From Marsupella aquatica (taxonomy: Eukaryota; Plantae; Marchantiophyta), in the NCBI GenBank assembly GCA_973895155.1, contig OZ316893.1, positions 27,352,210-27,416,209 of the forward strand: 64,000 bases of DNA, read 5' to 3'. A program made the translations under genes and the position numbers. Shown here in pieces: positions 2,403 to 33,548 of this stretch. The notes beneath the pieces were generated by a model that saw only the letters and a program-made list of their open reading frames with translations, ran no database searches and had not been told where the DNA came from. Within the stretch, counting starts at the first letter, position 1, and the number at the start of each line of letters is the position of its first letter.

Positions 2403-4039
2403 TGGCCAAGCAGCCGTCAGCAACATCAAAAGGTAAATCAAAAGCTAAACCTAAACCGCTGAGTGCAAGTGAAATCAAAATGAACAAGCTCTCTGGGCAT
2501 TTCAATTTGAGGGTCTTCAGAGCTCTCCAGGGGCTTTCCAATCAGGAGCATGTGAAGCGACTCCTAAACAGAGTAATTGGAAAGAAAATCACTCTAGAAC
2601 AAATGTTCAAAGAAGGTGAGACACTTAAGAAGTTGGCAAAGGTAAAGAAATTGTTCCTACAGATTTCTGGTCAAAAAGATTGGGCAACATGCCGGGAAAT
2701 GTTTCCCCAGGAAACCGATGTGAAAGTCCTTTCAACTTGGTGCGAAAAGCTCACAGAAGCAGTAAGCACAATGTCCTTATGGCTTTTTGTTTTCAGTTAT
2801 ATATATTCAAAGCAAACATTTGAGATATTGAATGCAGGTAGTGTGACTTGTATCACTGGTGGCATTTGAAATTTGTGTTTGGAAATCTTACAAAGAGTTT
2901 TGTTTAATGTGCAGTTCAAAATCAGTTCAAAGAGGAAGAAAAAAGTCATTTCTGGAAATGAATTTGATGAGGGCGTGGAGGTCAAGATTCCTTCATGCGA
3001 CATCCCCTACGTCTTCAAGAACTATGTTCTTGAAGCAATTGAAAAACACAATCGGAGACTGAATATCTCATCAATTGCTACAGCTTCATCTCAACATCAA
3101 TGGAAGAATGCAAATGGAGACGCATTCTCATATTCTCTTCATGTTGGAGATATTCGGAAACTAGAAACCTTTCTAGAGCCAAAACATTTTACTTTGGCAA
3201 TTGCAGACATCCCGTACGGTTTCAATGCCCCTGGTTCTCAGTTTGACGAGGAACCTTTCACTGAACAGGATGTAAATGAGATGGTTACTAATTTTGCTAA
3301 AATCACCACCTCTCCAATGTGGAGGTTTGTTGTGATCCATTCCTTGCAGCAGACAAATAGCGTTATGAGCGCACTTGAGAAGGTTTGCAATTGCGGAGTT
3401 GAGGCCGGTATATGGGAGAAGACAAACATCCATGAGCACCCTTCTGGGCCAAGGCTAGCTTGGGCCTTTGAGAACTGGTCAATTGGTTATTACAGTGAGG
3501 ATGGAGTCCAAAAGAAGGAGATGTACAATTTTGCTCCTGATGAGTCCAGGGTGAACATTGTGAAAGTTCCCTGTGTTACTACAAAGTCTGTGAGTCCATT
3601 AGGGTTTATTGTAAACCCTTACCAAAAACCAATTGCATTGGGTGATTGGTTTGTTAATCACTTCAGTGAGAAAGGGGACTGGGTGGTAGACCTTTGTTGT
3701 GGAACCGGGTCAACATTGGTGGCTGCACTTCTCAACTCTCGGAATGGGTGTGCTGTTGACAAAGGTGAGACTCAGGTAGAATTTTTGAGGAGTCGGATTA
3801 TGACATTGGAATCTGTTTGGACTCTATACAATGAAGCACAAGTGTCCGGTGAAGGTGGCCAGGGACAAGAAGTTCAGCCTCCGGTTGGTGGGCAGTTGGG
3901 AGTCATTGGTACTAGCATTTATGTGGATACTGATGACCAGGAGGAGCCTGAAGAAAGTGAGCCAAACATTGAAGAAAAGCTACCTAGAACACCAGAGGAG
4001 GATGTCGTGGGGATTCTTTGTTTAGTAAGTTCCTCCTAA
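2402..4039 (+). pseudogene. 5'-truncated duplicate of the ParB-MTase1 gene; intact beta-class N6A/N4C methyltransferase exon 2915-4039
   Basis: Motif IV-like LAIADIPYG precedes the motif X/I region NPYQKPIALGDWFVNHFSEKGDWVVDLCCGTGSTLVAALLNSRNGCAVD, which is the beta-class order. Intron 2762-2914 (GTAAGC...TGCAG) joins in phase 0. Confidence 0.85.
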
Positions 4040-4081
4040 GTATAGCTTAGTAGTATAGGATAGTAGTTTAAATTCTCGCAT

Positions 4082-4320
4082 ATGCAGTCTATAGTGTGCA
4101 TGCTACAGTGCACAACCTACAGTGTGCATGCTACAGTACACGGTCTACAGTATGCATGCTATATTGTTCGATCTACAATGTGCATGCTACAGTGCAAGAC
4201 CTACAGTGTGCATGCTACAGTGTACGATCTACAGTGTGCATGTTACAGTGTACGATCTACAGTGTGCATGCTATAGTGTACAATCTACAGTGTGCATGCT
4301 ACAGTGTACTGTCTACAGTT
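4082..4320 (+). repeat. Minisatellite, 14-bp subunits forming a 28-bp dimer (ctacagtgtgcatg ctacagtgtacgat)
   Basis: Read directly. The mirror copy at ~59975-60240 has about one extra 28-bp unit. Confidence 0.9.
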
Positions 4321-4538
4321 GCTCCACTCACGTAACTACAGTACTAGCACACTTACTTGCCTTGGATGTGTGACACATGGCTTCCATCCGTGTGCCATGC
4401 TTGATCCGTGTGCTTGAGGTGTGAGCACTATAAATAAAGAGGAGAGGGGCTCTCTCCCCTCACTCCCCATTTTTCATCAACTAAGTTGTGAAGTCTTAAA
4501 AATCCATTGGACTTGATGATCTCTTCTATGAATATAAC

Positions 4539-4801
4539 CCTTATGAAGTAGACCCACTCATGCACTCTTGCTTAGAGCTTCGGCTCGGCCAGGGATATTT
4601 TATATGAGTCGGACCTTCAGAAAGTGTTGTCATTTGATAGGAGATGGTTATTAAGTTCTAAAGAGTTGGAAAGTGCTCAACAATGCCTTGACATCATATG
4701 CTCCCTTTTGGGTGAAATCCTTATGAAGTAGACCCACTCATGCAGTCTTGCTTAGAGCTTCGGCTCGGCCAGAGGTATTTTGTATGAGTTGGACCTTCAG
4801 A
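4539..4801 (+). repeat. Two ~82-bp direct repeats 180 bp apart (ccttatgaagtagacccactcatgc...ggaccttcaga), downstream of a TATA-like box at ~4429
   Basis: Copies start at 4539 and 4719. The TATAAATA is followed by a GAGAGGGG...CCCCTC hairpin-like tract. Confidence 0.8.
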
Positions 4802-5177
4802 TAGTATTTTCATTCAAAAGAAGATCAACCTATTAAGATAAACATCTGCATGTATATACTTAGAGTTAACTCAATGCATGATATTTGTTTGAAATGGATG
4901 ATCTTGAATGATTCTATCTCCTGTCATTAGAATGAAAATTAGTTGGATGGAATATTTGATAGTACGATAATGCCCAGACCAGTACCTATTCTTCCTCTCC
5001 CTAATCCTTTCCTTATTAGAATTCATGTACTCCAAAAAGAGATAATGCGCCAGCATATGACTTTTCACTTTGGAGAAGCATTTGCAACTGCGGTATTAAA
5101 TTCAATAGAGCCAATTGTATACCCTTATGTAGGTTACGGGCAGGATTGGGCTTGCACAATTTTTATCTTGTATTGAG

Positions 5178-5387
5178 ATGGATCTCAACAAACCTCCCTC
5201 TGATGAGCCTCCCGTTTCTTTCTCGTTGGGAGATATTCATTTTGTAACTCGACCCAAGGTAGCTGCCAAGGAGGCAATAGTCCGTAGGTATGGAGAAAAG
5301 GGTTATGATGTTGTGCTTTCATCCACGGAACCGTTCCTTGTGGTGTCTGCTACCCGGTCTAGAATAGTAATCATGATCTTAACTTAA
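5178..5387 (+). CDS. Small ORF (69 aa) beginning with an EAR-like DLNxxP motif (MDLNKPP); copy at 58901-59110 (-)
   Basis: ATG-started ORF with DLNKPP. No evidence of expression. Confidence 0.3.
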   Translation: MDLNKPPSDEPPVSFSLGDIHFVTRPKVAAKEAIVRRYGEKGYDVVLSSTEPFLVVSATRSRIVIMILT

Positions 5388-5859
5388 GTTCTCTCTTGAC
5401 ACTAGCAGCCATAGGCCCGATGCTTCCTCAAGAACCACATTTTTCCCCCAGACAACGGGGAACTCAATGATATGTTGTTAGATTAGATGTGTGCAATAAC
5501 ACTATTGAGGATTTATCAACACTAGTGGAAAATAGTGTCCTTAATGACTAGAATGAGGACTGAAAAACGAGTCATATGTACCAATATATGACTAGAGATT
5601 TTCTGTCATACCTGCCTCATCTTTTAGGACAGTCAATTAAGACAAATGACTAAAACTCTCACCAGTCATTTATGGTAGTCCTGAATGACACAATATTTAT
5701 GAAATGACATGTTGTCCTAAATGACTGAATGAACGGCCGTCAGTCATTTAGGCATATCTTTAATGACACATATTTAAACAAATCATATTACAACACGTGG
5801 CAACTACACATGGTTGTCATTTCAGACATGTCATAAATGACATAATAATAAATCATTTA

Positions 5860-6165
5860 AGGTGTCATTTAGTGTGTCATTGAAGGTGTCGTACATGGTG
5901 TCATTAAAAATGTCATACAAGGTGTCATACAAGGTGTCATTGAGGGTGTCATATAGGGTGTCATTGAGAGTGTCATTGAAGGTGTCATTGAGGGTATCAT
6001 ACAGGTTGTCATTGAGGGTGTCATACATGGTGTCATTGAGGGTGTCATACATGGTGTCATTGAGGATGTCATACATGGTGTCATTTAGGGTGTCATACAT
6101 GGTGTCATTGAGGGTGTCATACAGGGTGTCATACATGGTGTCATTGAGGGTGTCATATAGGGTGT
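5860..6165. repeat. Subterminal 12-bp tandem array (ggtgtcattgag/ggtgtcatacat) of CACTA-1
   Basis: Read directly. The same GTCAT core recurs at the other end (21750-22135). Confidence 0.9.
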
Positions 6166-6522
6166 TTTTAAGTAATGTCATTTGGGATGTATCTAAGAAG
6201 AGCTCATAGTTATATTCAAAATCACATACAATGAATCCACTTAAACCCTAAACAAAGACATCCTTTGCGCATCATCATTGTATTAAGAAATTCACACTCC
6301 AACATTCACAAGCTCTAATATAGAATAATTGAAAAAACAGAAGTCATCATTGTATTCAGAAATTCACATTCCGACATTCACAAGCTCTAGTATAGAACAA
6401 TTGAAAAAACAGAAGTCTTTATGATGAAGTGATAGAAAGTACACATTTTTCACTCGCATGAGTGAAACAATGGTAACCAAAATATTCAAAAATTCTCTGT
6501 TCTACATGATCAGAGAAAATGT

Positions 6523-9280
6523 TCAACACTTTCGAAGAAACCTAGCATTCCACAATGTATTCATTCCTAACACATTCCGTAAGCAGAGTTGTTTCTCTTC
6601 TTTGTTGGGCATTGGCAATGCTGCATCACCACAATACACTGCCTTAACTGATACTCGCACCCAAGGACTCTCAATCATGACACAATGAAATTTATCCTAT
6701 CCTGGTAACCCTGTCACTTCACCTCTAGCAACAACTGTAGAGCGATCCACAACGCTTTGTACTTCTACAACATCTCCTTTTGAAAACTGCCACACAAAAT
6801 TGTTAGGACAAAATATTGTCTTGTAGTACTGATTTGGGCATATCATCAATTTAAGAACATAAACCAACTGAAAACAAATTCACCTTTGCTGCTGGATTTG
6901 GGGAGAGAACTGGTCCTCGTTCACTAGGTGAGATAGTGATAGGGGTTGTTTTCTTGAATCTCTTTGAAGGCCTAGGTGGTGTAGCCTCTTGTTCCTTAAT
7001 TGCATTTGACACTATCTGTTCATCTGTGATAGCAATCTCATCACTCTCACCATTACCAATGCTGCTTTGTACAATGCAAGGTTCTTGCAGTGCTCCCAAA
7101 TTTGCTTCTCCCGTACTTGGCTTTGGCTTCTGCCTTGTTAAAGTATCTGATTTCTCTCGCTGTGATACAGGATTCTCCCCTGAAGAAGCTACCACAAAAC
7201 CAAACAATGAATGTTTAGAAAACTTCATTCCAAATTGAAAAATAAATTATTGCATATGTAACATGTTTAGAGTATAAGTTTGTATGTTCTTACCATCACC
7301 ATCACCTGAGAAAGTAAGAGAACGTTTCCTGCTACTACCTTTAGGCTCAACCACCACCTTAGTAGCAATTGCATTTGATAATTGCATATGGAACTGATTC
7401 TGTTGATTTTGTGCAATGAAAGAAGTCATCATAGATGTCAAATTGTCCACTTTGAACTCAAGCTTGGTTAAATTCTCCACAGACTGTTCAAGCTTGAGTA
7501 ATCGAGCTGGTTCCTCAATTGTAGTTTCCCTAGACAGTGGAGTCTACATACACAAACACACCATACAATGTCAATCATCAATAATAATTTGAACATCATG
7601 GATAACTTATAATCAAAATTGAATATATATACAGGTTTTCATTACATACCGCTGATCCATGTGCAGATCCAATTCCAACAAAACTATTGCCTCGATGTTC
7701 ACCACTGCCCATAGATGGACTGATCTGCACTGGGGGGACTGGACTACTAGACACAAGTTTTGATATAACAGGGCTTGTCAATCCTTTTACTTTCTGGAAA
7801 CACATAATCACATTCAAAGCAATTAGAATATTAATGAGAACTCATCATGTCATTGTTTACTCCTATACTAGATAAACACTTCAATTCAAATGACAATCTA
7901 GACCTGCAGTGAGATGGACCATCTAAAGATTCTTACCAATTTTTTTCTGCTCCAGCAGCCCCTCCTCTTCCAAAATGCTCTTTGTTCACCACTTCTGCCC
8001 TCCTTGCTTTCATCACAGCACTCCTTGCAAGCAAAGCAGGACTATCAAAATGATCCACCAGTCGTGCCCATTTCAATGCGTCAACATATTGAGGTCCTGG
8101 TTTGGAGCGATCACGTTTATATACATCCTTCCAATAAGTATTTAGTTTGTGACGTTCTCTTTTCAATAACGTCCGACAGTGACTAATAAATTTCTTGTCA
8201 GACACTGACTGCTTATCTGGATACTCCCAATCTGCCTCCATCAATTTCTGCACATCCTCAATTATGTTTGGATCTTGTTTGTTCCAATCAGGTTGTGATA
8301 CATCAAAAAGCCTCAAGACATTGGCACGTAGCTCCTCCATCCAATATGGTTTATTAGGATGAGAATCATCAATATCATTGTCATGAATCTGATAACACCA
8401 CAAATGATAGTCATCAACATTGAGAATGAAACAAACACCCAATTGCTTCTGAGTACACAAACTGTAGGCCACAAATGTGAAATGTGCAATGAAAATCTTA
8501 CCGTTATCAATTTTCCCTTCTTATTGTCAGCCCTTCTTACACTACCGGTTCTCTGGAATTGTTTTTTGGCTTGCCTAGATTCCCTGCGTTGCTCTGTTGT
8601 AGTCTTTCTTCCCTCTACATACACAATGAACATCCAATATTGATCATCCACAATTGTAAAATGAGGGACAAGAAATATTACAATATAATAGGAGGACGAT
8701 TCATTGAATTTGACTTACCTGAACCCTGACTGGATGTCACTACTGTAGAGTGTCCAGATTTCCCAATCGATGTTGATGGAACCACCACTATACACATGCA
8801 AACCACTGCAATTATGAATCCAACATTCATATAGATCAACATTGAAAAATACATTGAAAATCTTTGAAATTACTTACATTCAAATAGCTGGCTAGTCACA
8901 GGGTCTTTGTAACATTGCACCATGCCACTCATGGAAGGTCCAACCTTTGTAGGGGTTTCTTTTGCATCTGCCAAGCTCTTGGATCAAGTTAAAACCAATG
9001 TTATTAAACAGAATCACTACCAATGTCTATAGTTTCCTCATATTGTTGGTGAATGTAATAGGAATCTCACCTTGGATGAACTTTGTGGTTTCTCATCTTC
9101 ACTGTACTCAGCATCAGTGTCATAATCTGATTCAGAACCCTCATCACCAGACTCTGCCATACTCACTGAGACAATTCTTGATAGTCTGGAGCTCTGTCTC
9201 CTCTGTGTGGTAACCTCACTTCTAGGAGTTCGACGTGCACTTGTTTTCTTCTTGCGCCCTATGGTCTGTGTTGCACCCAA
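6523..9280 (-). pseudogene. Multi-exon TnpA-like gene of CACTA-1
   Basis: Exon ~7933-8400 has W...HFGRGG of the plant Ptta/En-Spm type. Last exon ~6523-6787 reads KGDVVEV..VARGEVTG*..VRVSVKAVY..LPMP..TLW (Tnp1-type C-terminal domain, one stop). Several GT-AG introns. Confidence 0.7.
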
Positions 9281-9665
9281 TCTACATCAGAGAATATCAA
9301 TGAATGAATGACAAGTACCAACAACCAACTCATATTGCTGATGAGCAATATTAACACATCTTTGCACATTCAAAACAACATGCAAGATTATACTCACATG
9401 AAATTGAAATTTTCTCCAAATATCTCCTGAATTTTTTATTGTTGTCTGCTACCTTCTTATTTCGTTCCTCCTCATATGGAGGTATTCGCTGCATTCACTG
9501 CTAGACCATGGCATGCCATGTACGTTAGTATGATCCCACTATCAACTAAATGAAACCGGACTGTACAGTATCTTCAAACCATTCATTTCCTTTTATACTT
9601 TCTTTTTCCTTTGTCTGTAGTACTTGATCCAGGCTCCTGTCTAGTTATATAGGCTTCTGCCAACT

Positions 9666-12600
9666 CTATGTGAACTTAGCATTGTCATCCATAGTATCAT
9701 GGAAATCAACTTCCATGTAATCACCCAGCACCCTTGTAGACCTAGATTCCTTGTGGAGGATTGTCCTCCATGCAATCCCCTTATCATTTGGGTAAAAAAA
9801 CACCTGTTCTATCTGTCGTGGCAATACATAGTCCATTTTCTTGGAAGCACCCAGCTCCTTCTGAAAATTTACTTGCCACAATCCAGACGTATCATATCTC
9901 ATACTTGCTGTGGCTTTGGGAGTCCAAGATGGGTTTGCCCACCTTCTTTTGAAAAGGACCACTTCCTTTATCAGAGGCCCATAGTTCAACACTAAGATGT
10001 CTGTCAACACCCCCACATATTGTACAGATTCATCTACTGTTGCCCCTGACCTAATGACCCGCTTCTCAGTGAATGTACAAGCCATCCCAGAATCAAAAGT
10101 CTTGAACCCAGATGAGTCACAATCAATCAAGGAACCTAGTGATGGAATGGTCCTCCAATGGTGCCCATAGGCTCTGCAGGCCCTGTACCACAGTGCCTTC
10201 AGACTAGGTGGTACACTATACGCTGCCAACACCATTCGTTCAATCTCATTCTCAAAATTATGCCTTCTAATTGTCACTTCAAACCATTCTCTAAAAGGAG
10301 GCAACTCATCCAAATCAGAGGGATAAGGCACAGGATTCCTCCGATTTCCTGGATTCTTCATCCATTCTTTCCGGAAATCTGCTCTGTGCTTGGTAACTGC
10401 CTCCTTTTGATCATCATAAACCCTGCATGGCAAGAATGACAGTCAGCTCCTAGGCCCACACAATTTCTGCTCAAAACTCAATTATGTTTAATAATAAACA
10501 ACAGAGAACTTAACAATATAAACCATGCTCATACCTATACCATGGTTCCACCAGCTCTTCATTCTCTAGTATGTAATGATGCATAGCTATCATATCATTC
10601 CACTCCAAGGTGATATGTTTTCCAGCTCCTTCCAAGACAATGCCTGCAACACCAGGATTCTCCTCCAAGTCCCATGTTCTCATTCCTGTCCCCTTAACAT
10701 CGATCATGTATTCAGAAAGGAATCCTAAAGATTCATCTAGAAGGTAGCCTTCAGCCATAGAAGCCTCTGGACGTGCCTTGTTTCGAACATAACCCTTCAA
10801 GGTCTTTAGATATCTTTCTATTGGGTACATCCATCTAATGTTCACTGGACCACAGATGTCTAGTTCCTGAACCAGATGAATCAACAGATGGGTCATGACA
10901 TCAAAGAAGCTTGGTGGGAAATGAATTTCCATAAGGCAGAGTGTGAATGCAACATCCATCATCACAGAGTCGTACTGTGAGGGATCCCAAACCTTGGCAC
11001 AGATGGTACGCCACACATTGCTCACTCTGGCTATGGCCAACCGAACACCTTCATCAAGTAATCCCATTGTTGCCAATGGAAGGATTTGTTGCATGAGGTG
11101 ATAGAAATCGTGAGATTTCAGCCCTGATAACTTCTTCTTAACTGTGACACATTTAGCCAGAGAACTGCTGAAACCAGTGGGCCCTTTAAAGGTCAACAAT
11201 ACCTCTAAGAACTTAGTCTTCTCTGTCTTACTGAGGCAGTATGGGGCTGGCGGCATGATCTTTGAATCTTTTTTTGGATCTGGATTTGGAACCAGCCACA
11301 GGTGTTCCCGCACGTCCATGACTTTCATGTCTTCTCGAACAGAAGGAGTATCCTTTGTCCCCAAAATAGTGTGCACGATGTTGTGTGCAAGATTCTTCTC
11401 ACAGTGCATGGGATCCAAACAATGGTTGATGAGAAGTTTCTGCATTGGACGCACAGTTCAGTACAAACTAAGTTAGAATAAGAAATGTTACTCCTTGCTA
11501 CTTAACATTAATACACACTGAGGGATTCAGTATGGGAAACCAGATACTTACACTCCAGTACGGCAGCTTGTATAATCCAGTAACCCTCTTCACTCCATTC
11601 TTCTTTACTGGAGAGTTTTCATCATCCAGCGCATTCCCTGGTTTCTTCTCCACATATTTAGCGGCCTTTTCTCCCCAACATTTCCTATCAGAGCTGGACA
11701 CTCTACACGGTGCATCTCGTGCCTCTACCTCACCATTAAAGTATTTTGCCACTTCCTCTTTGCAAAAATAGTGCCTCTGTGGTAACCAGCGACGATGGCC
11801 AGCAAACAGTAACTTGCCCAACTATTTTGAACCATGTGCCACACAATTTGGCCCACAAACCACACATCCTTTGTACCCTGCATGTTGTTGGCCAGAGACT
11901 AATCCATATGCAAGATAATCATTGATTGTCCACAATACTGAAGCCCTTAGCTTGAACTCTTGCTGCAATCCTAGCCTTGGTAGAACATCAAAACAATCTA
12001 CTCCTTCTGACCATAATGTCTCAAGATCATCCACAAGTGGAGCCATGTATACATCAAATTGTTCCTCGCTTACAGACACAGGACCTGGAATTAGAAGAGC
12101 TAGCATGACAAAGAACTTCTTTGTGGAAAGCCAAGGAGGGATATTATAATTCAACAGCAGGATTAGCCATGTAGACCAGGCAGTAGAATTATTCCCAAAT
12201 GGATTTACCCCATCAAGTGCCAATCCCATTCGCACATTCCTTGGCTCAGCAGCAAAAGCAGGGTCGATCTCTGTGTCCACATGTTTCCATGCCTTTGAAT
12301 CTGCTGGATGTCGGACCATGTTGTCCTTGCTCTTGTTCTCATGATGCCAAGTCATTAGCTTAGATGTACCCTTAGTGGCATACAATCTCTTCAATCGAGG
12401 GATTATAGGGAAATATCTCAAGACCTTCACAGGTTGTAAAGAATTCCCCACTAACTTCATCTTTGGCTGATTACACTTGGAACAATTGTCCAACTCTGCA
12501 GTCTCATTTCTAAATAACATACATCCATTCTCACAGACTGGGATTCTCTCATAGTCTAAACCCAATTTTCTCAGTAATTGTTTTGCAGCATATAGGTTTT

Positions 12601-13285
12601 TAGGGAGAGTGTGCTATGTTGGCATTCCATGCTCAGTCAACAAAGACAGCATGGCATTCACTCCCGTGTTCGAGAACCTATTGTTGTGACAGATGTTTAA
12701 AAACAGCAACATGAAGGAAACTACATCTGTCTTACTGCCTGGAAATAAGGGTTTCATGGCTTCTTCTAAAGACCCTTGCAGAGGGACAGGATTTATAGGA
12801 TGCCCTGCTGTAGGTGTGTCCTCAGCCCTGGTCTCAGCAAAGGGTGGATCTGCCTCATTCTCATCATTTTGAAACATTGAATCTATATCAAAAGGAGGAT
12901 CATTATCCACATATTCGTCAGACTCTTCAGAAGCTCTTGCCAATGTCTCCTGAAGTAAAACTCTGACCTGCTCTTCAACATCTATTGATAGCTGGCCTGA
13001 GTGGAATGCCTCTCGAGACATTCCTGCCCTTAGTGCCTCTGTACCAGAGTTACGGATGTAATTGGATCTCCACTCCTCATCAGAAGAGTCTTCACCCTCT
13101 CCTACCCACACTCGACAGGCAGGGTAGCGGCCATATTTAAGAAGATGTTGTCGACTGGTCTTTCGAGTAGTCTTAACAATCCCTTTGCATTCCATGCAAG
13201 AGCAATACATTCTATGATCAGCACTACCAGAGCAAGCTGTCTGTTCCCGAGCCCATAAGTTATCATCACGATATGTACAAATCAA
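9666..13285 (-). pseudogene. CACTA TnpD/TNP2 transposase (transposase-associated Zn finger, Transposase_21, DUF4218, DUF4216) with in-frame stops at 12614 and 11822
   Basis: CSCMEC..HLLKYG; HPADSKAWK; RNVRMGLALDGVNPF; NIPPWL; LDPMHCEKN; GLKSHDF; FPPSFFDVMTHLLIHL; GPV..RWMYPIERY. Confidence 0.93.
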
Positions 13286-13942
13286 AATGTCATCAGTTTA
13301 CAAGACCAAAGAAAGGCCTACCTGAACCAGATTTAGGCCAAGGGTGTTCACAGTAGTCAGCAATCTCAGACCCTTCAAAACAGTGAGTACAATAAGAAAC
13401 ATTAATCATAATGTCCATCAATCCCCTCCTTCATTCTTTGACTTTTGAATACATTTGTTGAAAGTCCTCTTCAAATATATAGGCAATTTTTATTTGGGCA
13501 GGTACTAGAATAGATTCCACATCACAACATTTCATCATCCCCACACAAACCAGGATACATATGGACAAGGGCCTGAAAGGGTTTCATGTAATCTACATAA
13601 TTAAACATATAGTGTTTCTGTGCAGTAGTAAGAATGAAATACAGTCACTCAGTCTTCAAAATTATCAAAAAGGAGAAAGTTCTAAGACCCGGGTTGAAGG
13701 AGTTGTTAAGGGTGTTGACCTGGGTTTAGAAAGGCAGTACTACAAAACTTGAGAGACATTACGTGAAGTTTGCCTTGTTATGCCCAAATCCCTCAGTCAA
13801 AGGGACAACAAGAATTTTAAGACCTTGGGTGGATTTTAGGTCTTGCCTCTTAAGGTCAGTGTGATGTTTTTTAGTTCTTTTGTTATGTATCTCCATTCAG
13901 GCTCTTCATATGTTTGCCATTGACAAAACAGTCATCATACAA

Positions 13943-14389
13943 TCAGAATTGATACTGGTCTTTCTCCACTAAGTGCTGCTCTACTCTAGGGCAAACAGTC
14001 TCAACCCCTGGTCCCAAGATTGGCTCATCATGGTGGAACATTATACAGGCACACCTCCTTTCCAGTCTAATGTGTCCATCCCGCCTATATATATCCCCAG
14101 GGCGCACTCGACATTTTGGGCAAAAATCCTCACAACGATGGATACAGGCAGAGTAGCAGATCTGCTGTGGTTGTACCACTCCATTATCGACTGCCACAAT
14201 ACAAAAACCTATGGGCAAGGGTGGAGCATCCAGAGTAATGGGCCGACTATACGTGTCTCTGTGTACAGGCAAAAACTCCCATTGCACAACAGAACTGGCA
14301 GGGACCAACCTCATTCCACTCAGCTTCAGGCGTAGCCTCTCAGCTCTGCCTTCAAGGTCAGCTCCCAATCTACTGCGCGTCCTTGGCAT
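13943..14389 (-). CDS. Cys/His-rich cargo ORF of unknown function (~148 aa)
   Basis: ATG at 14389 after an AG acceptor-like site; CYSACIHRCEDFCPKC...CAC...HH. Confidence 0.4.
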   Translation of the reverse strand: MPRTRSRLGADLEGRAERLRLKLSGMRLVPASSVVQWEFLPVHRDTYSRPITLDAPPLPIGFCIVAVDNGVVQPQQICYSACIHRCEDFCPKCRVRPGDIYRRDGHIRLERRCACIMFHHDEPILGPGVETVCPRVEQHLVEKDQYQF

Positions 14390-14612
14390 TACTATAACAA
14401 ATACAAGAAGCAATAATTTATCCAACCCAAACACTCAATGAAATTCATGCAACAATTTAAGATTCAACTATTTCATACAATCAGATAGTTAGTCCATTTG
14501 AGTTTAGTCCATTAGACAGTGTAGTCCACTTCATACTATAATCAAACATTTAGTCCACTTCATGAATACTTAATACTATGTCGTGTTGTCTACACAACTG
14601 AAGGCTTATGAT

Positions 14613-15311
14613 CTATTTGAAATCATGAGGTGGCACATCAGAACCCTCTGGAATGACATGGCGATTGCAGTACACCATACGCCATGGACCAATATCCCAA
14701 GTTTCTCTACCCTTAACCCCTCTCTTCAGGTGTTTGTCTGCCTCTGGTCCTTCATCTCTGCACCACGCACGAGGGCACCTACGACACTGGATAAATTCCC
14801 AGATGCCATCCCGATACTCCTTGCACACATCACAATAATGCCTTGGGCATATCAGAGCAGCGGGATGTGCATCTGAGTTCTCTGCATAAGTTATCAGAGG
14901 CAACTCGTTCGCCCTCAATATAGTCCGCAGACAACCCACATGGTAAAAGGAATAGCAATCGTCCTGTGCACACTGAATCACAAGGGGCTCATCTGTAGTG
15001 GGTTTCACGGTTCGGCCAAGTGACCCACAAGCAAAGCAACAAGCTCGGTTCTGCTGACAGAGGTCACAGAGACACTCCTTGTCCCAATCATGCCCTCTAG
15101 AAATGGCAATGCGTGTGCACTCAGGCCCATGGCCATCAGGCTCCTCAACATCCTGCCCATCAACTAAGTAATGAAAATGTCGACTACAAGGCCCATCGCA
15201 GAACAAAACAGTACCTCCCTCATCACATTCAAAACAACAGGGGGGATCCATGCGAAGGTGCTCCTTATGGGCAAACTTGGGATCCAACCAGGCAGCAGCA
15301 GCCCGTGCCAT
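14613..15311 (-). CDS. EDM2/NSD-type tandem PHD-finger module (~232 aa) carried by CACTA-1
   Basis: CFECDEGGTVLFCDGPCSRHFH; CCFACGSLG; IQCAQDDCYSFYHVGC; CPRHYCDVC; QCRRCPRAW; WD...RMVYCNRHVI...PPHDF. The order matches the plant EDM2 PHD region as I recall it. Confidence 0.85.
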   Translation of the reverse strand: MARAAAAWLDPKFAHKEHLRMDPPCCFECDEGGTVLFCDGPCSRHFHYLVDGQDVEEPDGHGPECTRIAISRGHDWDKECLCDLCQQNRACCFACGSLGRTVKPTTDEPLVIQCAQDDCYSFYHVGCLRTILRANELPLITYAENSDAHPAALICPRHYCDVCKEYRDGIWEFIQCRRCPRAWCRDEGPEADKHLKRGVKGRETWDIGPWRMVYCNRHVIPEGSDVPPHDFK

Positions 15312-18300
15312 GCTGAAGAAAATAAAATCTGCACAATTGCCTTCAACATCACTCCAAAGTCCATTCAAAAACCAAGAGACAAACACAAAGAAGGTAAGTG
15401 AAGTGTACTTACTCACAGAGCAGTTGAGCCAGCCCCAGTCGCACCTCCAACCAGCACAGACCTGTGGTTACCACACTCATCAGTCTCCCCAATATTTATT
15501 CCCCAATTGCCCCAATATTTATTCTCAGTCTAGCCAAACCAGCCTGCAGGCCTACACCAGCTATTAAGTTTTCTCTAACGTCCCAGCTGACAAAACAGCT
15601 CAGCCTTTGTTGCACTTAAACTAGAACAGAACATACATCTGAAAACATTCTGATCATCACCTCCAAACCTTCCGCTTTAACAAACAAATCACAGCCGTCC
15701 GTACGTAGCTCTCAATCAATAAACATACAAACCCTGAGAGACACACCCTATCAAATTACTTTAGGAGAAGTAAATATACTCTACAACTGAATTCTAGGTT
15801 TGACATGATTGTATGAATTTTAATGGGTATCCTGTTCAGGAGATCATTAGTTGAAGTGTTCTAAGCAGCTCCAATTCTCAAATACGCACCTAAGGCCTTA
15901 GCAGAATTAATAATTACAGGCTTGTTGCAAAAACTATAAGGCCAGACAGGAATACCTTAAGGGTGAAAGGTTTGCGGACAATCTGTAGAGAGCAGATTGC
16001 CTACAATCAAATCGAGACGCCCATAAACCCTGCACAACCACCACACAACAATTGCACATTGCTGACAGGAAATCACATGAAAGAATGCAGTATAACCAGA
16101 AGGGAAGAAGTATAATGCTTCTAAAATTAACGGACTTTGAAGAGCATAGCAGACCTCAGACATGATTTGCCGTTTGGTTCAGACAAAAATTAATGAGACA
16201 AGAGAGACAACAAGGTACCCAAACCTTGCAGCGGGAAGGGGAAAAAGGGACGCAATGGAGGAAAGAGGAGAAGATGGGCTTTCAGAAGAGAAAACACGAC
16301 CGAGCAGGGTGAGACAAGCAAGACTTCGTCAAAGGACAGAACGCTGGAGTATGAAATCCATGATTACTCTGTTTTTAGATATATTATATTTTCAGAAGAA
16401 TAAGGAAGCAAGGCCCAGTGGATCCACACTGTCTTAAAGGTACTAGCGGGCAATATACAAACATCCAATCCCAAGCCAACAGATATAACATTTCTTGGCC
16501 AGCACAGACAGGAAGCTCGAGAGGAGCACAAAGCAAGCCGCACAGGGTGAGAGAGAGGCATGAACACAAAAACCTATACAGACCAGAACGAAAGCTCCCT
16601 TCAAGCTGGGACTCTACTCTTGGTTGATCGATGTTGCTGATACTAGCTAGTGCACTTTATTGAACTGAAAAAAACATTGACAGCATCGGGCAGCACTTGT
16701 AAGTGAAAATGAAAGCATTAAGAAGCAACAGTAGTCTCAGGGATTGAGGTGGGGTTTTAGGTAGCTTTGGCGCAGAAAAAAGTAAGGAGGGAATGCTAGG
16801 CATTTCCTAAGACCAATAGCCCAATCAAGGTGATCAGAGCAATAAGTAAAATACAAACGGGGATGCAAAGCAAATGGCAAAGGCATGACAAGAGAAAAGG
16901 GAATGGCCAAGGCATGACCACACGCAGCTCAAAGCCAAAGCAGAAATTCCAGAGCAAAGTCAAGAAGGACCAAAAATGATGTAGCGGTACACACCAGATC
17001 ACCCCAGATCACCCCAGATGCCTTCTACTTTTCCAGTTCCGCTGATGCAGACCCTAATGTCGAGCCCTCGCGCCTGCACACTTGATACCCCCGATCAATT
17101 TCATACCATCACAAACGAGTACCGTATGCAATGTTCAAGAAGATGTTGCATCTGCAACCCAGGTCGAGACCATTTTCAGGGAGCGCAGACGACAGCACAT
17201 GTTGATTCGACAGATAAGGGAGCAACATTGAAAGAAAAGCAAGCTGCATATTGAAGACTTAACATTGAAAGCTACCGTGGGAATACTCACAAATCAGCTG
17301 CCAGCGGCCTCCAGTGCAATGCCTCCCACCACCTCCACGTTCTCCTTCAAAGCCACGCTAAGGTCGACGCTACACACTACACTCACAGGAGAGAGATCGA
17401 TCAAGGCAAAAATGCAAATCCGCAACCTTAGAGTACACTGTATGGAGAAAAAGAGCAATAGGGGAAGAAAAGCAAGGGAAGCAGACACAAAAGCATTAAG
17501 CAAAAGACAAACGGGGATGCCAAGCAGAAAGCATGATAGGAGAGAAGCAAATGGTTGAGGCATGACAAGACGCAGCTCAAAGCCAAAACAAAGAAGGCAT
17601 ACATACCTTCAACCGGAAACTCTCTTTAAGCTCAAACACACAGAAGTTGCAGCAACTCGCAGCTTCCCCTAGCACTCGATCACACCAACTCACAGCAATC
17701 TGTAGTTGCTCGCAGCAGTTTGCAGCAAGTCCCTAAACTCCCAACAGCTTGCAGCTCCCACCAACACCTCTTAGCAGCTCCCAGCGAGTCCAACAGCGCA
17801 CCAGGAAATCTCCTGAGGAATGCAGGTCCGAGCTCGAGCTCGATCGTCAACAACTTACAGTGAAGCAAGGAACTTCCTTCACAGTCCTAAGGTGCAACTC
17901 GCGACTCTATTCTTGCTGCTTCGATCACAAAAGGTCCTTTCAGGTGAGCGCCCCTCCTTCCTGGTCGCCGTTGCACTGATTGCTGGCAGCTAGAGTTCCC
18001 TTCCACAATGACGGGAGTGTGCGTGTGCTTGAGGTGATCAGCGATGGTGGGCGGTACATAAGGGCAGCAGTAGGGAGTTCCCCCAAGAGTTACGAGCCTT
18101 TCAGAAATCACGATGGCAGCAGCAAGTAGGAACGTAGGAGCTCGGTCCTAGGGCAGCTTCCCACTGCCCACAATAACAAAGTGCGACCCTCCTCCTCCAC
18201 CCTAAACCGTAGTCCCAAGTTGCAGCTGAACTCCACAGCATCCGATTAGAAGGCCAGACTAAACTCCCGAGTTGATGAGTGAGTAAGTGCACTCTGCGTC

Positions 18301-19099
18301 GCGACGATAAACCCTTCGACAAACTACGCAAAGGAGCAGGAAAACCTCAACATTCGATAAGCTCTTCGCAAAGTTCTTTGTGAAACAGGGAATCCAATGA
18401 GCCGGGTGCTTCCAGCAGTTCCTGCCAGTGACAAAGGCAAGGGCCGGGGGATTGAGGGGATGACATGTGGACGATGGAGATTGCATCCAATTGCGACTAT
18501 GAACGGGAAACTTCAACGGTCCAAGTGAAGGGGTTACTAGGGCCTTATTCCCCCCATAAAGGACTTAATTAAGTTTGTGATGTCATTAGGGAGTGGAAAA
18601 GGACTTTGCACCACCCATAACTATTTTTCTCCCCCAAAAGTGCAAAAATTACTAACACACCCTCTAGAGAAAAACAATTCCAAGAAGCCCCTTTGGGCAA
18701 TCCATCAGCCATAAAGCATCTCAAATAATTGAAATGTGTGGCTAAGTTAACAGGAGGAGTTAATTGGCAGCCTAAATGATATTTGGCGGTACCTTAACGG
18801 AGTTCTGGGCGTAATTTAGCAAAAGACATAATCTGCAATTTGGGCCCCTTTTTTCTTAACTGAAATGATGGAAACTTGGTACGGAGCAGTACAATAAATC
18901 ATCTAAATGAGAACTTACTCCAGAATATCTAACATAGATATAGTCAAGTGTGTTTGGTATACTAAGGGACCAAAAGCTATCGTGACTCTTTTGCCCTCAT
19001 GACATATATGCAATGGTATGACCCCCATAAAGTGAAGTCTGCCCATATAATGACTCCAACATGGAAACAAAGTAACATAGACCAGATTAGGGTCCAGGG

Positions 19100-21260
19100 T
19101 TGAAGTGTACCCTATCCCGCACCATGTGGAGTGGGTAGCATCCCTAATGGCGGGCTACAATCATAAATATTGCCAATCACCCCCAGGAGGCCCCAAAGAG
19201 TCATATTCTCCATGGCATGCATGACTGCAATAGTGACATCATGAATGACTTATTTTTGTGTCATTTGAATGAATGACATCTCCCGGCACTCCCTAAATGA
19301 CAAAAACCTTTAGTCATGCATAGTAATGACTCAAGATCCCTTACAAATGACCAAATGGGAGTGGTTTGCACTCCTTTGGACAAATGACTCCAAAGTCATA
19401 CAACTTGGGAGTGTTTTGCCCAAAGTTGGGTGATGCCCTTCCATGATGCAAAATGTGTGCTTTAAAAAGTGTTGTGGAGGCCAAGTGGCATAACTAGTGG
19501 CTCAGGGTGTACAAATACCCCATCCGCACCATGTGGAGTGGGTAGCATCCCTAATGGCCGGCTAAGATCATGTATATTGCGAATAAGCCCCAAAGGCCCC
19601 AAGGAGTCATATTGTCCATGGCATGCTTGACTGCCACATTGACATCATCAATGACTCATATTTGTGTCATTTGCTTAAATGACACCCCTCGGCACTCCAC
19701 AAATGACAAAAACCTTCAATCACATGCACAAATGACTCAAGATCCCTTACAAATGACCAAATGGGAGTGGTTTGCACTCCTTTGGACAAATGACTCCAAA
19801 GTCATACAACTTGGGAGTGTTTTGCCCAAAGTTGGGTGATGCCGTTCCGGTCAATTGCAAGCTTGAGGGGGGCAAAAAGGATATCCAATTTCTTCACCAA
19901 AAGGATTCTAGTCCTTCCCAATTTACAAGGGGTGGACAAGGTGTTACACCAAATGGCTAGGATTAGTTTGTTGAGATTGGATGGTGAGATCTTGCATGCC
20001 AAGTCTTTGGAAGTGTGTCCAGGCTTTTAGGAAGTCCCAATCTTCTTGGAAGTGTGCACAACAATTTTGGAAGTGTGTCAAACCTTTATGGAAGTGGTGT
20101 TCAACTAAATCTTTATGATCTTTGAGTCCTTTTTCTCTCCTTTTTGAGCTAATCCTTTTTGCATCCTTTTGCCCCCCTCAATCTTGCAATTGACCTTCCA
20201 TGATGCAAAATGTGTGCTTTAAAAAGTGTTGTGGAGGCCAAGTGGCATAACTAGTGGCTTAGGGTGTACAAGTACCCCATCCCGCACCATGTGGAGTGGG
20301 TAGCATCCCTAATGGCCGGCTACGATCACGTATATTGCGAATAAGCCCCCAAAGGCCCCCAGGAGTCATATTGTCCATGGCATGCTTGACTGCCGCATTG
20401 ACATCATCAATGACTCATATTTGTGTCATTTGCTTAAATGACACCCCTCAGCACTCCACAAATGACAAAAACCTTTAGTCAAGTGCACAAATGACTCTAT
20501 ATCCCTTGCAAATGACAAAATGCGAGTGGTTTGCACCCCTTTGGGCAAATGACTCCAAAGTCATACAACTTGGGAGTGTTTTGCCCAAAGTTGGGCCACG
20601 CCCTTCCAAGGTGAAAAAATTGGGTCATAAAAACTATTGCGAGGCCAAATTGAGATAACTAGTGGCCCAGAGTTTAGGTGTACCCTACCCCGCACCATGT
20701 GGAGTGGGTAGCATCCCTAATGCTGGGCTACAATCATGGATATAGCCAATTGACCCCCAGAGGCCCCAAAGAGTCATATTGTCCATGGCATGCATGACTG
20801 CAACAATGACATCATGAATGACCCATTTTTGTGTCATTTACATGAATGATGTCTCCCAGCACTTCCTAAATGACACAAACCCTTAGTCACGTGCACAAAT
20901 GACTCTAGATCCCTTGCCAATGACTCACAATAGTGGTTTGCACCCCTTTGGGCAAATGACTCCAAAGTCATACAACTTGGGAGTGTTTTGCCCAAAGTTG
21001 GGTGATGCCCTTCCATGATGCAAAAGGTGTGTTTTAAAAAGTGTTGTGGAGGCCAAATGGCATAACCAGTGGCCCAGGTTTGTCAAGTACCCTATCCCGC
21101 ACCATGTGAAGTGGGTATCATCCTTAATGGCCGGCCCCTATCACCAATGGGGTCAATCAGCCACCAAAGGGTCTTAAGAGTCATATTCTGCATGGCATAC
21201 ATGACCACAACATTGACATCCCAAATGGCATTTGCATAAATGACATCTAGCGGCACTTGT
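19100..21260. repeat. Five tandem ~410-bp subterminal repeats of CACTA-1
   Basis: Marker ccgcaccatgtggagtgggtagcatccctaatg recurs at ~19117, 19524, 20282, 20690 and 21097. Confidence 0.92.
19849..20195. mobile_element. 347-bp MITE with ~33-bp TIRs (GGTCAATTGCAAG.TTGAGGGGGGCAAAA) and 4-bp TSD TTCC
   Basis: TIRs read at both ends; TTCC at 19845-19848 and 20196-20199. Sibling repeat copies show the empty site gatgcccttccatgatgc. Confidence 0.92.
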
Positions 21261-22292
21261 CAAATGACTAGAAAGTTGAGTGAGAGCAAAAATGATTGGG
21301 AATCCTTTGCAAATAACATGAATAATATATTGGAAAAAATGACATGAGCAAATATAGGCATGTAGTATCTAAATTCTAAACCTTAAACCCTAGACCTATG
21401 CCCGAGAGTGTTATTTGGCAACCTTGCATGCCCCCATATATACTCCAACATGTGAAATGTGAATACAGCTTAAGGAATGTAAACACTTCAGGAGTCCTTG
21501 GCATATATAGGAAAGATGTAATAAATGGGTGCAAGTATATATAAATATACATACTTATTAGAGATTATCAAGCCTTTAAGTTGTACATCAATTTAATGAT
21601 GAGACTCACAACAAAAGAAGGCTTGTTAGGTCTCTAAATGTATTTCAAATCTAATATGTGAGTGCCACTAGTCTTTATATATACTACCATACGTTTTGGA
21701 TGACTAATCATACCCTAAACCCTAAAACATATACTAAACCATAAACCTCAAAATAGTCATATGTTGTTTATCATGTCATTTATCACTTTTGGTTTAAATG
21801 ACTACTAACATTTTTAAACACTGATATTTGCATATTTGATTTATTAGTCATTAGTCACCGTCGTCTGAAATGACTTCCCATATGTGAAACACTGATATGA
21901 CAGAGTTTTTGTTAATTGTGTCATTCACAAAGACTGTCCAAAATGACTACAACTCATGATTGCTGTCATTATAGCAGTCAAAGTCATTTGGCTCATTGGT
22001 TTAAATGACACTATTACAAGTATTAGTCATTTTTTGCACCCCGTCATTTTGGACAGTCATTTCAATGTCATTTATGTCATGTCATTTACATATTTTGTCA
22101 TTTGAGCACATAAGTCATATGTGTCATAGTCATAAAAGGCCCCATTTTCTACTAGTGCAAGGCTTTCTATTAATGATTGAGAACCTTGATAAACATATCT
22201 CTATTTGAGGTTTGAAATGCAATTGGCGATACATGTATCGGATGTAGCATTCCCAACAACATTCCTACCTATCTGCACTTTTCCAACTCTAA

Positions 22293-24782
22293 CTAGTCAC
22301 AGTCATCTGCATCAATGATTTCCGTGTCGAGCATTGCTGCTTGGATGATTCGCTTTGTTTGTACTGGAAGCGTGTTGTTTGAGAGCAGTGCAAAATTATA
22401 TGCATAAATTGCAGTTTCTGAGAGGCACAATGTGTCCTCAAGTAACTTGTTAGAGGATGCAGCTTTTTCAGGGTAATATTGACCTTCCATAGCAGACCCT
22501 TCTTGAGAATCCATTGTATACCATACAATTTTGATGTTCTCTGGAACATCTTGTACTTTGGATAGAATATCTATGACTTTTGCCATCCAAAATGGTCTGC
22601 TGTTTGGATCCCTATATGCAGCCACGCAAATCATTGCATATTTAGTGTTCACTTCAAGATCTTTGAAGTCTCCCTCAACTGCTTTCTTCTTCCTTGTTCC
22701 AGAGTACATGACTGTTGTTGCACCTGCAATTTTATCTAGCAAGGCTGGCTCTATTTGTGGGGGAAGTGCATTTCTTGGAGTCTCTACTCCAATATTTGAT
22801 TTTGGCCACGTCCAATCAAAAACCCATTGTCCTGCCTTCAAGTGGTGTTTAATCACTTCTTTCTGGTTGTCAAAGAAACGGAGCCACCAAAGTTTATCCT
22901 CATCATCAAAGTAATTGAATCCATCTTCAATTGATTTGCGATATTTCTCCAGGACTGCAACATGGTTGCAGAGAAGATGCTCGTCTCCATTGCCTCCGTC
23001 ATCATGTTCATCATTCTCCACTGTTGCTCCGGTTGTAGATTTCAATGCCATTTGTGCAGCAACCCACATGGTAGATGTGGGGATGTATCTAAGGAACTCC
23101 ACTGCTTCTCCCCAACTTTGAGTGCTAGAAAGATGCTTTGCATGAACCAAAGTCGAAGTTCCATTCTCTCCTACAACCCTCTTCATCCTAAATTGCTTTT
23201 GACCACTAATACCATGTAGAGGACACAAAACATGCCCAATACCTCCCATGTCATTGGGTTGGTCTTTATCCGACACAAACTTCTTGAAATCAGCAACCTC
23301 TTCAACAAAAATTATCTCAGCCTTTGGATTGTACGAATCCTTGAGAATGTCTGCAAGACTATCCACCCGAAAAGCTTTTCGCTTATTTAATTTTGAGGAG
23401 AACTTGCTGAACATTTGGTCAATCTGATCATGGGTATGTCCAACCAAAAGAAAACCAACTTTGATCTTTTGGAAAACCCTCATCTCAACAAGCATATTCA
23501 AATATGCCATGAGAAATTTATTTTTATTTTCTCGAGGTGTATTATCAAGTTGTAGATACAACACTGGAGGGAGTGGACCTTCCCAACTATTTAAAATATG
23601 TTGGATCACATGCACTGTCAAGTTGGTGTCATTGTGAATGTTTGGATAATTCAAAAACACTTTTGATGTCAAATGTCCATTGAACACCAAACAACCCACC
23701 ACATGTACCGGAATAAAGTACTTCTCGTCCATGTTTTTGGGGCACCTAGTGAAATGTGGCAACTTAGTCTTTTTTTGATCCATACCATCAATGCAGATCC
23801 CCAAATATTTTTCTGGACTCTTATAGCACTTGCTTCGGTGCTTTGCTAATTTCTCCCTCTCAACTCCTTGTGCTTTCCGATGTTGGTTCAAAAGTGTTGA
23901 ATATTTTCCTGTCAAATGAACGTCAATGTTTTTGTCAATAATAACCGCATCGCCAAACCAAACAAGTAAATAATGTAGTACTTAACATCAATTCTTTACT
24001 TATTTAAAGGTAGACACAACTTACGTTTTTCTGCTTCAAGTACTGCTTTGTCGCGAAGTGCTTTGAACTCTGTGCAAGGACCGCATGTGGAGAAGCGACT
24101 CTTTTTTGGAATACGCACCCTGGGGAACTCTTTGTTCCAGATGCGAACAAACCAAGAATATGTGATCTCGGTTTCCTTCCGCACCATAGTATCAGTCTTG
24201 AAAGCATCAAATACTTCAGCTTTCGTCCAATTGTCTGGTAAGTGGAAGATGTCCTTGTTTGGAAGACTTTCAACATTTGACATGAAAAACTCATTCAACC
24301 ATTGAACTAGTGAAAGATGAGTAACCGATTTTTCCTTGCAAAATGTGTCATTTTGAATACGAGAAAACGTATTCCTTGAGATTCTCTACAACCGATTATT
24401 TCCAACGAAAAATAATTTCTTGAAACCTTCTCGACAAAAAGATCTCCCGTCAACAATGTAACCGGTTGGACCACCGTGCCCACTTTTCAAACAGCCCCTT
24501 AGAAGTATGTTCTTCTCGGTCGATGATAAGCCATAATAGAAGGTCCGGTGTTTTGTCACTAAATCTAGACCAAAATATCTCAAACACAAATTATCACAAC
24601 ATGGGTACTTAAAAACTTCTTTCATTTTTTTTTGTCTTTAAATTTTGATTTGTAACATTATCTTTCCTCACAAGCTTGTCTCTCACTTTCTTGCTAAGCT
24701 CCTTTTGTTTCTCCATACTGTGAAATCCATGGAGTGAATTTTCACTCTCTTGTCTCTTTGCAACTTCCAGAATAGAGCCATT
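22293..24782 (-). pseudogene. DUF7869/Sola-like RNase-H-fold transposase A, catalytic 3' part
   Basis: PCCDNLC; SFCREGF; FSTCGPC; CIDGMDQ; LYLQLDNTPRENKN; FLLVGHTHDQIDQMFS; C-terminal PFWMAKV..IKIVWY. Frameshift in the T-run ~24630, stop at 24386, intron 24024-23909. Confidence 0.8.
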
Positions 24783-32800: not shown

Positions 32801-33548
32801 GACACTTCAGGTCCACTAGTACCTAACCTTTCTTCCTCTATTAATTCATGTAGACCTTATTTTGATTAGTTATTTCTATTGTTTAAAAACTTTCTATTAT
32901 CATTAATGACATCCATAACTGTAATGTTGGCTTCTATATTTATGCCATAGGCCATGTGGGTTTTGGCTATTTAGGGATGGGTGTCATATTTTGATGATTA
33001 TTACATTAATGGTATCTTTTACAGTGTAATAAAAATTTGTGGGTTTTGTTAATTTTAGGGTTTCTTCCCTTGATGAGAAGAGGGGTCGTACTTTTGATTG
33101 TGGAGTTCAAGGGGAATTTTCTCAAGACTCCAGAAGCAGCCGCCATGACAGGAACATTGTTAGAGATGTTGTGCCACACTATGGGAAGATAGAGGAGATC
33201 TTGGTGGTATCATATGACAACCATTCAAAGTTTGAGGAATATGTCTTCAAGTGCAAGTGGTTCAAAGTGAACCTTGTTGGTCAAAATTGCACTGTACTTC
33301 AAGATGAGAGTGGGTTTACACGGTTGAAGACAAGTGCCACTAGTGTTCAAGCATCTCATTGGCAAACGTCAGAACCATTTGCTTTCCCATCACACTTGGA
33401 GCAATGTTTCTACATTCCATACCCCTTAGACACCGAGTGGTCAATTGTCATCACCTATGTGCCACGTTCTCGTTCCATTGTTTCTGAGAAGCCAGATGTT
33501 ATTGTATCAGACCTAGATGACCTTGAGGCCGATGAGGACCAAGTGTGA
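28729..33548 (+). CDS. CACTA TnpD/TNP2 transposase, apparently intact: join(28729-28962, 30058-31231, 31349-32810, 33059-33548), ~1119 aa
   Basis: HACVNDCMLF; RHVRLGLASDGVSP; YNLPPWL; HDYPG; LDPMHIEGN; KTHDYH; LPPSFFD..HLLVHL; WMYWLERY; FKCKWF; EPF. All introns are GT-AG and phase-compatible (3360 nt total). Confidence 0.9.

Follow-up and report, generated by a model that had tools for sequence, protein, structure and literature searches.

A stand-alone EDM2-type PHD reader gene in a CACTA transposon of the liverwort Marsupella aquatica

Results

A 64,000-nucleotide stretch of the Marsupella aquatica genome (referred to as the window; assembly GCA_973895155.1, contig OZ316893.1, positions 27,352,210 to 27,416,209 of the forward strand) contains a 16.6-kb CACTA transposon, CACTA-1, at window positions 5520-22157. 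Within this element we found an open reading frame (ORF) of 232 amino acids (aa) on the minus strand (15311 to 14613), which encodes an EDM2/NSD-type cassette of three PHD fingers and nothing else. We estimate a probability of roughly 80% that this PHD ORF is a selected accessory gene of a multi-copy CACTA family, as judged from sequence comparisons. The gene order in CACTA-1, all on the minus strand, is PHD, ORF2, TnpD and TnpA-like. A sequence-only reading of the window had described the ORF as an intact, intronless, stand-alone EDM2-like module carried by a transposon and ending in a WD...YC..H.I tail. The ORF scan and Pfam agree with that description: the frame is free of stops over its 232 aa and holds the cassette alone.

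The triple-PHD cassette

The fingers extend over C26-C85 (PHD1), C92-H158 (PHD2) and C160-H218 (PHD3), and the tail of the protein reads WDIG..MVYCNRHVI. Pfam gave a PHD_NSD match (E 3e-9) that passes the cut-off, together with weak, below-cut-off matches to PHD-1st_NSD and PHDvar_NSD in the expected order. An ESM Atlas feature search placed streptophyte PHD_NSD clusters on top (0.92). The single PHD sequence gave no match in a PDB search; the family profile matched NSD2 and NSD3 across the whole cassette, and AIRE and TRIM33 across PHD1 only. An AlphaFold2 model built from the 80-row alignment has a mean predicted local distance difference test (pLDDT) score of 82 and a predicted template modelling score of 0.80 (an earlier model from a 9-row alignment, with pLDDT 47, was unusable). 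When this model was searched with Foldseek, the top ranks were taken by BRPF1 PZP and the PHD tandems of NSD1/2/3.

The three tandem fingers are atypical. Twenty-two of the 24 ligands correspond to the host consensus, one is changed from His to Cys and one is lost, so that the PHD3 zinc site is altered relative to host proteins (H184 to C; C187 to E/D/K). His194, which is common to the PHD protein and its homologues P0002 and P0003 (see below), might replace the missing ligand. PHD1 retains an acidic D22/DEGG/D39 pattern and is without a Trp ahead of the fifth ligand; in PHD fingers, the Trp preceding the fifth ligand forms the H3K4me3 cage. No catalytic or recognisable DNA-binding domain was detected in the PHD protein by sequence and Pfam scan. 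The RFD (PF12047) and methyltransferase-like (ELP) domains are missing from the 232-aa ORF, and the host matches carry RFD.

Conservation among homologues and element copies

Three close homologues were found among 5.8 billion proteins: P0002 (69% identity), P0003 (56%) and one fragment. P0002 and P0003 start at the same Met as the PHD protein and their ends fall within 2 residues of its end. To define ligand positions, we took the 24 sites at which no fewer than 70 of the 76 other aligned proteins have Cys or His. The PHD protein, P0002 and P0003 are identical at 23 of these 24 positions; of the remaining 174 core positions, 82 are identical in all three (Fisher p=1.7e-6).

Contigs were taken from six public runs that contain the stretch (three coded organisms, four studies), one of which may be the source of the window DNA. 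All six have contigs over the PHD ORF and likewise over TnpD and the TnpA-like gene. Run X3 yielded 510 contigs over 1.7 kb, with 134, 145, 172 and 59 in the successive identity bands. Hundreds of contigs with 80-100% identity span the PHD gene and ORF2, and divergent contigs cover ORF2 throughout the runs (summed contig depths were not taken as copy numbers). Cover at an identity of at least 80% drops sharply just upstream of the PHD ATG in all four runs compared, and in organism C it ends at or just inside that ATG. With two homologues and divergent contigs in six of six runs, the gene is not limited to the copy in the window. The PHD gene family is evidently constrained.

A substitution test across copies, which the sequence-only reading had proposed, could be carried out on the listed contig differences (40 of 185; 38 coding rows, of which 16 fall in the PHD gene). 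For ORF2, non-synonymous relative to synonymous polymorphism (pN/pS) was 0.42 (9 synonymous, 13 non-synonymous; p=0.04). The PHD value is similar at 0.45 (6 synonymous, 10 non-synonymous); it is not significant (p=0.11), and this is the first of several points that weigh against a selected accessory gene. PHD3 has lost a host ligand. P0002 and P0003 are known from protein sequences alone. None of the contig pieces listed joins the PHD ORF to TnpD, and their linkage in other copies rests on co-occurrence within the same runs. Shortened derivatives are present as well: joints 9311-16879 in run X6 skip TnpD, ORF2 and the PHD gene and leave a TnpA-like-only derivative, and in run X1 a joint at 14006-14519 leaves out most of ORF2. 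Searches of metagenome and viral contigs for loci with flanks gave none.

An exhaustive search among 1.84 billion representatives gave 176 matches at E<=0.001; the figures below rest on the best 150 of these. The nearest host proteins are ~35% identical to the PHD protein. This bears on the reading in which the constraint comes from domesticated, stand-alone PHD genes of the host, from which the transposon copies were recently captured. P0002 and P0003, like the stand-alone cassettes P0081, P0144, P0148 and P0150, are indeed known as proteins alone. Nevertheless, the search returned no annotated host protein above ~35% identity, all close homologues are Logan, JGI or similar entries, and the contig copies are many and diverse. 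We consider a domesticated host source very improbable, the least probable of the alternatives weighed here.

P0144, P0148, P0150 and P0081 are further stand-alone EDM2-type PHD cassettes of 133-222 aa, and P0144 has the same H to C change in PHD3. They may represent a second transposon-borne family.

The CACTA-1 element and the state of this copy

CACTA-1 is a genuine member of the CACTA (En/Spm) group by its ends, its 3-bp duplication and its TnpD domains. Out of 5,897 CACT[AG] end pairs, only 5520/22157 had at least 14 of 16 matching terminal positions and a 3-bp duplication. The left terminal inverted repeat (5520-5535, plus strand) and the right one (22142-22157, minus strand) match at 14/16 positions and are flanked by the target duplication CAA (5517-5519 and 22158-22160).

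TnpD (9666-13297, minus strand) has three coding blocks with Pfam matches to Transpos_assoc, Transposase_21, DUF4218 and DUF4216. We take the multi-exon gene at 6520-9280 (minus strand) to be TnpA-like from its position and its motifs; Pfam gave no match. Between the PHD gene and TnpD lies a second intact ORF that the earlier reading had missed, ORF2 (14389 to 13943, minus strand; 148 aa). It is Cys/His-rich and stop-free and was assigned to no family: Pfam and PDB searches gave no match of weight, and no DNA-binding family was identifiable.

The left subterminal region (5540-6500) carries 12-bp and 72-bp tandem repeats with the ATGAC/GTCAT motif, and on the right a ~408-bp repeat unit rich in the same motif occupies 19091-21318. 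Motif density is 39.8 per kb at 5540-6500 and 19.7 per kb at 18600-22157 against a background of 1.5-2.5 per kb inside CACTA-1 and to its right, an enrichment of about 8- to 25-fold in both subterminal regions. The subterminal motifs of CACTA elements are TnpA binding sites.

A polypyrimidine tract followed by AG (15313-15330, minus strand) is predicted to serve as a splice acceptor 1 nt ahead of the PHD ATG, and another acceptor is predicted 2 nt ahead of the ORF2 ATG. A motif scan located a candidate donor (17600-17610, minus strand; AG/GT at 17606) ~2.3 kb upstream of the PHD acceptor, which would close a putative non-coding leader exon. We infer that one non-coding leader is spliced to alternative acceptors for PHD, ORF2, TnpD and TnpA. 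In En/Spm, TnpA and TnpD arise from one gene via alternative splicing (PMC13547354).

The sequence-only reading had set the intact PHD ORF against stops in TnpD and TnpA. The stops were found: in-frame TAG codons at 12614-12616 and 11822-11824 in TnpD and one at ~6697-6699 in the last exon of the TnpA-like gene, that is, three in ~1,347 transposase codons. The contrast itself is expected by chance. Scaled by nonsense opportunity, the PHD ORF should hold 0.5-0.8 stops, and the probability of none is 0.46-0.60. Since neutral decay leaves the frame open in 46-60% of cases, intactness in CACTA-1 was rejected as a sign of function. The window copy has Cys at position 80 (place 15072), where every contig of four runs as well as P0002 and P0003 have Trp; of 76 other aligned proteins, 75 have F, W or Y at this site. 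Between the window copy and the longest contig pieces of X1, ~47 of 5,200 letters differ (7 of 8 pieces summed). This copy of CACTA-1 is evidently ageing, decaying and non-autonomous.

These observations bear on a neutral reading, in which the PHD ORF is a functionless host fragment carried along as Pack-CACTA cargo. Such capture is common (PMC13317346), and the chance-level intactness, the non-significant pN/pS and Cys80 in the window copy are all compatible with it. Pack-CACTA cargo, however, is marked by a close host match and no coding constraint, and the PHD ORF differs in both respects: at ~35% identity to the nearest host it keeps nearly all ligands, is free of frameshifts and begins at a start codon of its own, preceded by a predicted acceptor, and homologues at 56-69% identity retain 23 of 24 ligands. 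Similarity among copies is also concentrated on the ORFs. Neutral cargo is thus largely refuted and in our view improbable.

Origin of the cassette

After the close homologues, the best four host matches were proteins from Marchantia, Riccia and Calypogeia. These four proteins terminate with the cassette and have no methyltransferase motif behind it; full-length EDM2 proteins rank next. The best matches are therefore EDM2-type cassettes, with liverwort paralogues first among host proteins, and not unrelated PHD proteins. No longer homologues were obtained by word-index search, a result that is uninformative, as the exhaustive search found many EDM2 proteins. Of five group profiles, that of the liverwort paralogues scored the PHD protein, P0002 and P0003 (P0001-3) highest: 123-131 bits, compared to 111-117 for other non-seed-plant EDM2-like proteins, 102-112 for presumed algal proteins and 84-98 for the angiosperm type.

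Tree topologies were less uniform. Post hoc pruning of 15 rows, most of them redundant or on long branches, gave a tree that unites P0001-3 with the liverwort paralogues (support 99/100; stem length, 3.2 changes per column). Two results pull away from this placement: the 40-row tree puts P0001-3 on a long branch with other stand-alone cassettes and not with the liverwort genes, and a sister relationship to the full-length EDM2 of Riccia was not rejected (p=0.22). When the 40-row tree was constrained to unite P0001-3 with the liverwort paralogues, the log-likelihood was 3.2 higher (approximately unbiased (AU) test, p=0.65). An angiosperm EDM2 as sister or recent donor (one clade with 10 angiosperm-type rows) was rejected at AU p=0.006. 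The EDM2 affiliation proposed earlier thus holds at the level of the family; flowering-plant EDM2 is excluded as the closest relative, and liverwort paralogues are nearest.

The likely donor is a liverwort EDM2 paralogue whose C-terminus is formed by the PHD cassette. This donor is likely and not proven: the best matches, the profiles and the pruned tree speak for it, and the Riccia alternative was not rejected. The stem branch of P0001-3 (about 2.5-3.2 changes per column) points to either an old capture or a fast-evolving PHD gene.

The liverwort proteins P0007-P0009, P0012 and P0018 form a clade of EDM2 paralogues with a C-terminal PHD cassette and no methyltransferase motif. Riccia has both a paralogue of this type and a full-length EDM2. 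A literature search on EDM2 and Marchantia found no study of these cassette-ending paralogues.

Predicted function

The scheme that we prefer starts with the ancient capture of a cassette from a liverwort-type EDM2 paralogue, after which purifying selection would have maintained it. PHD, ORF2, TnpD and TnpA would be expressed from a shared leader exon via separate acceptors. The PHD protein is predicted to bind H3 tails with unmodified or low-methylated K4, because the acidic patch of PHD1 is kept, the Trp of the K4me3 cage is absent and AIRE and TRIM33 are, by profile, its closest single fingers of solved structure. It would then serve as an adaptor through which the proteins of CACTA-1 itself dock on chromatin or nucleosomes, and contact with TnpA/TnpD or ORF2 could bias insertion or keep element copies engaged. 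Tethering is preferred because a lone reader helps the element only by tethering or blocking, and tethering has the most precedent: for other transposons, a role in guiding integration has been proposed for PHD, chromodomain and MBD readers (PMC6673714, PMC8557442). It counts against the scheme that nothing built into a free PHD protein connects it to the transposase. We give the full adaptor mechanism about even odds.

The sequence-only reading had started from the reading by EDM2 of marks that contain dimethylated histone H3 lysine 9 (H3K9me2). This property, measured for flowering-plant EDM2, is not transferable since the nearest hosts are liverwort paralogues without the methyltransferase-like domain and one zinc site is changed; K9-methylation reading by the PHD protein cannot be inferred from its sequence. 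The same reading had offered a dominant-negative decoy of host EDM2. The PHD protein would suit such a role as the reader-only piece of an EDM2-family protein. In Arabidopsis, however, 97.84% of the H3K9me2 changes upon EDM2 loss are gains (PMC7529245), and a decoy would therefore be expected to strengthen silencing and hurt transposons. Moreover, the effect would be genome-wide rather than family-specific, and the long stem and rewired zinc site make competition for partners doubtful. A decoy is a poor fit and we regard it as quite improbable, a little more so than neutral cargo.

An anti-silencing function ranks second, as a possible but doubtful reading in which the PHD reader acts together with ORF2 as a sequence-specific partner. 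It may occupy the marked nucleosomes of the element and block host silencing readers, or it may recruit host ASI1-AIPP1 so that transcripts pass the long leader intron to TnpD/TnpA. The second route would fit the predicted 2.3-kb leader intron of CACTA-1, as the AAE complex promotes full-length transcripts across intronic heterochromatin (PMC9292364). ORF2 adjoins the PHD gene and is intact, Cys/His-rich and mildly constrained, and the tandem subterminal motifs resemble VANC targets (PMC5735166). On the other side, two EDM2 domains, RFD and the methyltransferase-like one, are absent from the PHD protein, ORF2 belongs to no DNA-binding family identifiable by Pfam and PDB searches, and TnpA sites adequately explain the subterminal motifs on the basis of CACTA anatomy.

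Comparison with known systems

The PHD ORF resembles plant EDM2 and EDM2-like proteins (Arabidopsis EDM2, Mangifera XP_044495102, Selaginella XP_002976689, Riccia KAL3696213) in the cassette, the ligand spacing and the C-terminal W...YC..H extension, with about 30-35% identity. Unlike them, it has no RFD (PF12047) or methyltransferase-like domain and its PHD3 ligands are changed. By the tested features, the PHD ORF is not an EDM2 orthologue. The matches to the liverwort paralogues (Marchantia Mp1g03210, Riccia KAL3685775, Calypogeia CAM6087769/CAM6107985, M. paleacea KAG6543325) range from E 4e-22 to 8e-16. They share with the PHD protein a D-P-P-x-C start of PHD1 and QCRRCP.AW, and their cassette is likewise protein-terminal. 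In contrast to the PHD ORF, which consists of nothing but the cassette and has a very long branch, these are host genes of 620-770 aa with a long N-terminal region.

PHD fingers have been described in CR1 ORF1, Chlamys Penelope-like elements, Rehavkus DNA transposons and Chlamydomonas elements (PMC8557442). These are also accessory histone-reader domains on mobile elements; they sit, however, within core element proteins, whereas the reader of CACTA-1 has a gene of its own, with an EDM2-type cassette of three fingers and a traceable plant donor family. The Plavaka elements of red algae and fungi (EnSpm/CACTA) are similar to CACTA-1 as large elements with separate chromatin-related accessory genes, but their cargo is enzymatic (SET, N6-adenine methylase, 2-oxoglutarate (2OG) oxygenase, TET/JBP; bioRxiv 10.1101/2025.02.11.637652), while that of CACTA-1 is reader-only in a plant-type element with TnpD/TnpA. 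CopiaMBD and the chromodomains of chromoviruses are host-derived readers kept by transposons and proposed to steer insertion; unlike CACTA-1, which encodes its reader as a free protein, they are retrotransposons whose polyprotein or integrase contains it (PMC6673714).

The sequence-only reading had likened the PHD ORF to VANC proteins. VANC, which carries DUF1985/DUF287, is comparable as an accessory protein encoded by a transposon (the VANDAL group of Mutator-like elements). It may act on element chromatin, where it binds family-specific DNA motifs and induces demethylation (PMC5735166). The likeness ends there: no sequence-specific DNA-binding domain is detectable in the PHD ORF, the two are unrelated in sequence and superfamily, and Pfam searches of the PHD ORF and ORF2 for VANC homology gave PHD/zinc-finger families or nothing. 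The PHD ORF is evidently not a VANC.

Transposons with PHD domains and CACTA elements with chromatin cargo are known already; the combination of the two is apparently unreported. We found no report of a CACTA-borne EDM2-type reader gene in the literature (Repbase, subscription journals and supplements were outside the scope). The term 'PHD' is missing from the main text of two 2026 articles on transposon products and gene capture (PMC13317346, PMC13547354).

Other features of the window

A second CACTA-type transposase locus, CACTA-2, is found at 28729-33548 (plus strand). Upstream of its TnpD lies a SET-domain ORF (29066-29881, plus strand; Pfam SET, E 6e-6). Its 78-codon first exon has a C-x-C-x2-C...H motif that resembles the transposase-associated zinc domain; with its phase-0 end, this exon could be joined in frame to the SET or the TnpD exon. 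The termini of CACTA-2 were sought and not found.

Two inverted cassette copies, 97.8% identical, are located at 2402-5458 (plus strand) and 58830-61920 (minus strand). Both carry an N6/N4 DNA-methylase ORF (PF01555, E 1e-7), comparable to the accessory genes of red-algal Plavaka elements. The ORF ahead of it has what we take to be a ParB-like motif; Pfam gave no match. Two DUF7869 (PF25273) transposase-like genes are at 22293-24385 and 52979-56400 (both minus strand). The first starts ~140 bp from the right end of CACTA-1, and CACTA-1 is therefore likely nested in another element.

Window positions 39124-41272 (plus strand), 36349-37154 and 42595-43354 hold retrotransposon fragments, namely a Copia-like piece, presumably RNase H, and Gypsy-like integrase (rve match), together with a 74% repeat pair that may be old long terminal repeats. 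Tandem arrays of 66-bp and 34-bp units (56500-57300 and 58305-58675) share a palindromic core in opposite orientations and are possibly binding-site arrays of a neighbouring element. The sole clearly host-like gene among the ORFs scanned is a 2OG-Fe(II) dioxygenase exon at 45654-46478 (minus strand; Pfam DIOX_N and 2OG-FeII_Oxy).

Implications

In plants, the ways in which DNA transposons select chromatin and evade silencing are understood mainly from VANDAL/VANC. A high-copy CACTA family with a reader gene that is small, separable and confined to one exon makes the question of targeting and silencing escape directly testable. The PHD ORF also points to a liverwort branch of EDM2 for which our literature search found no study. 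Together with the SET and methylase cargo nearby, it presents early-diverging land plants as a source of transposon chromatin genes, comparable to red algae. We also put forward, as an unlikely and speculative extension, that a CACTA lineage, likely of liverworts, has a modular chromatin toolkit deployed by alternative splicing, in which the EDM2-derived reader and ORF2, as a small zinc-binding partner, would form a family-specific, VANC-independent anti-silencing or targeting module and CACTA-2 would splice SET onto its transposase zinc exon. If true, land plants would possess a second counter-silencing system of independent evolutionary origin, made from a host heterochromatin reader.
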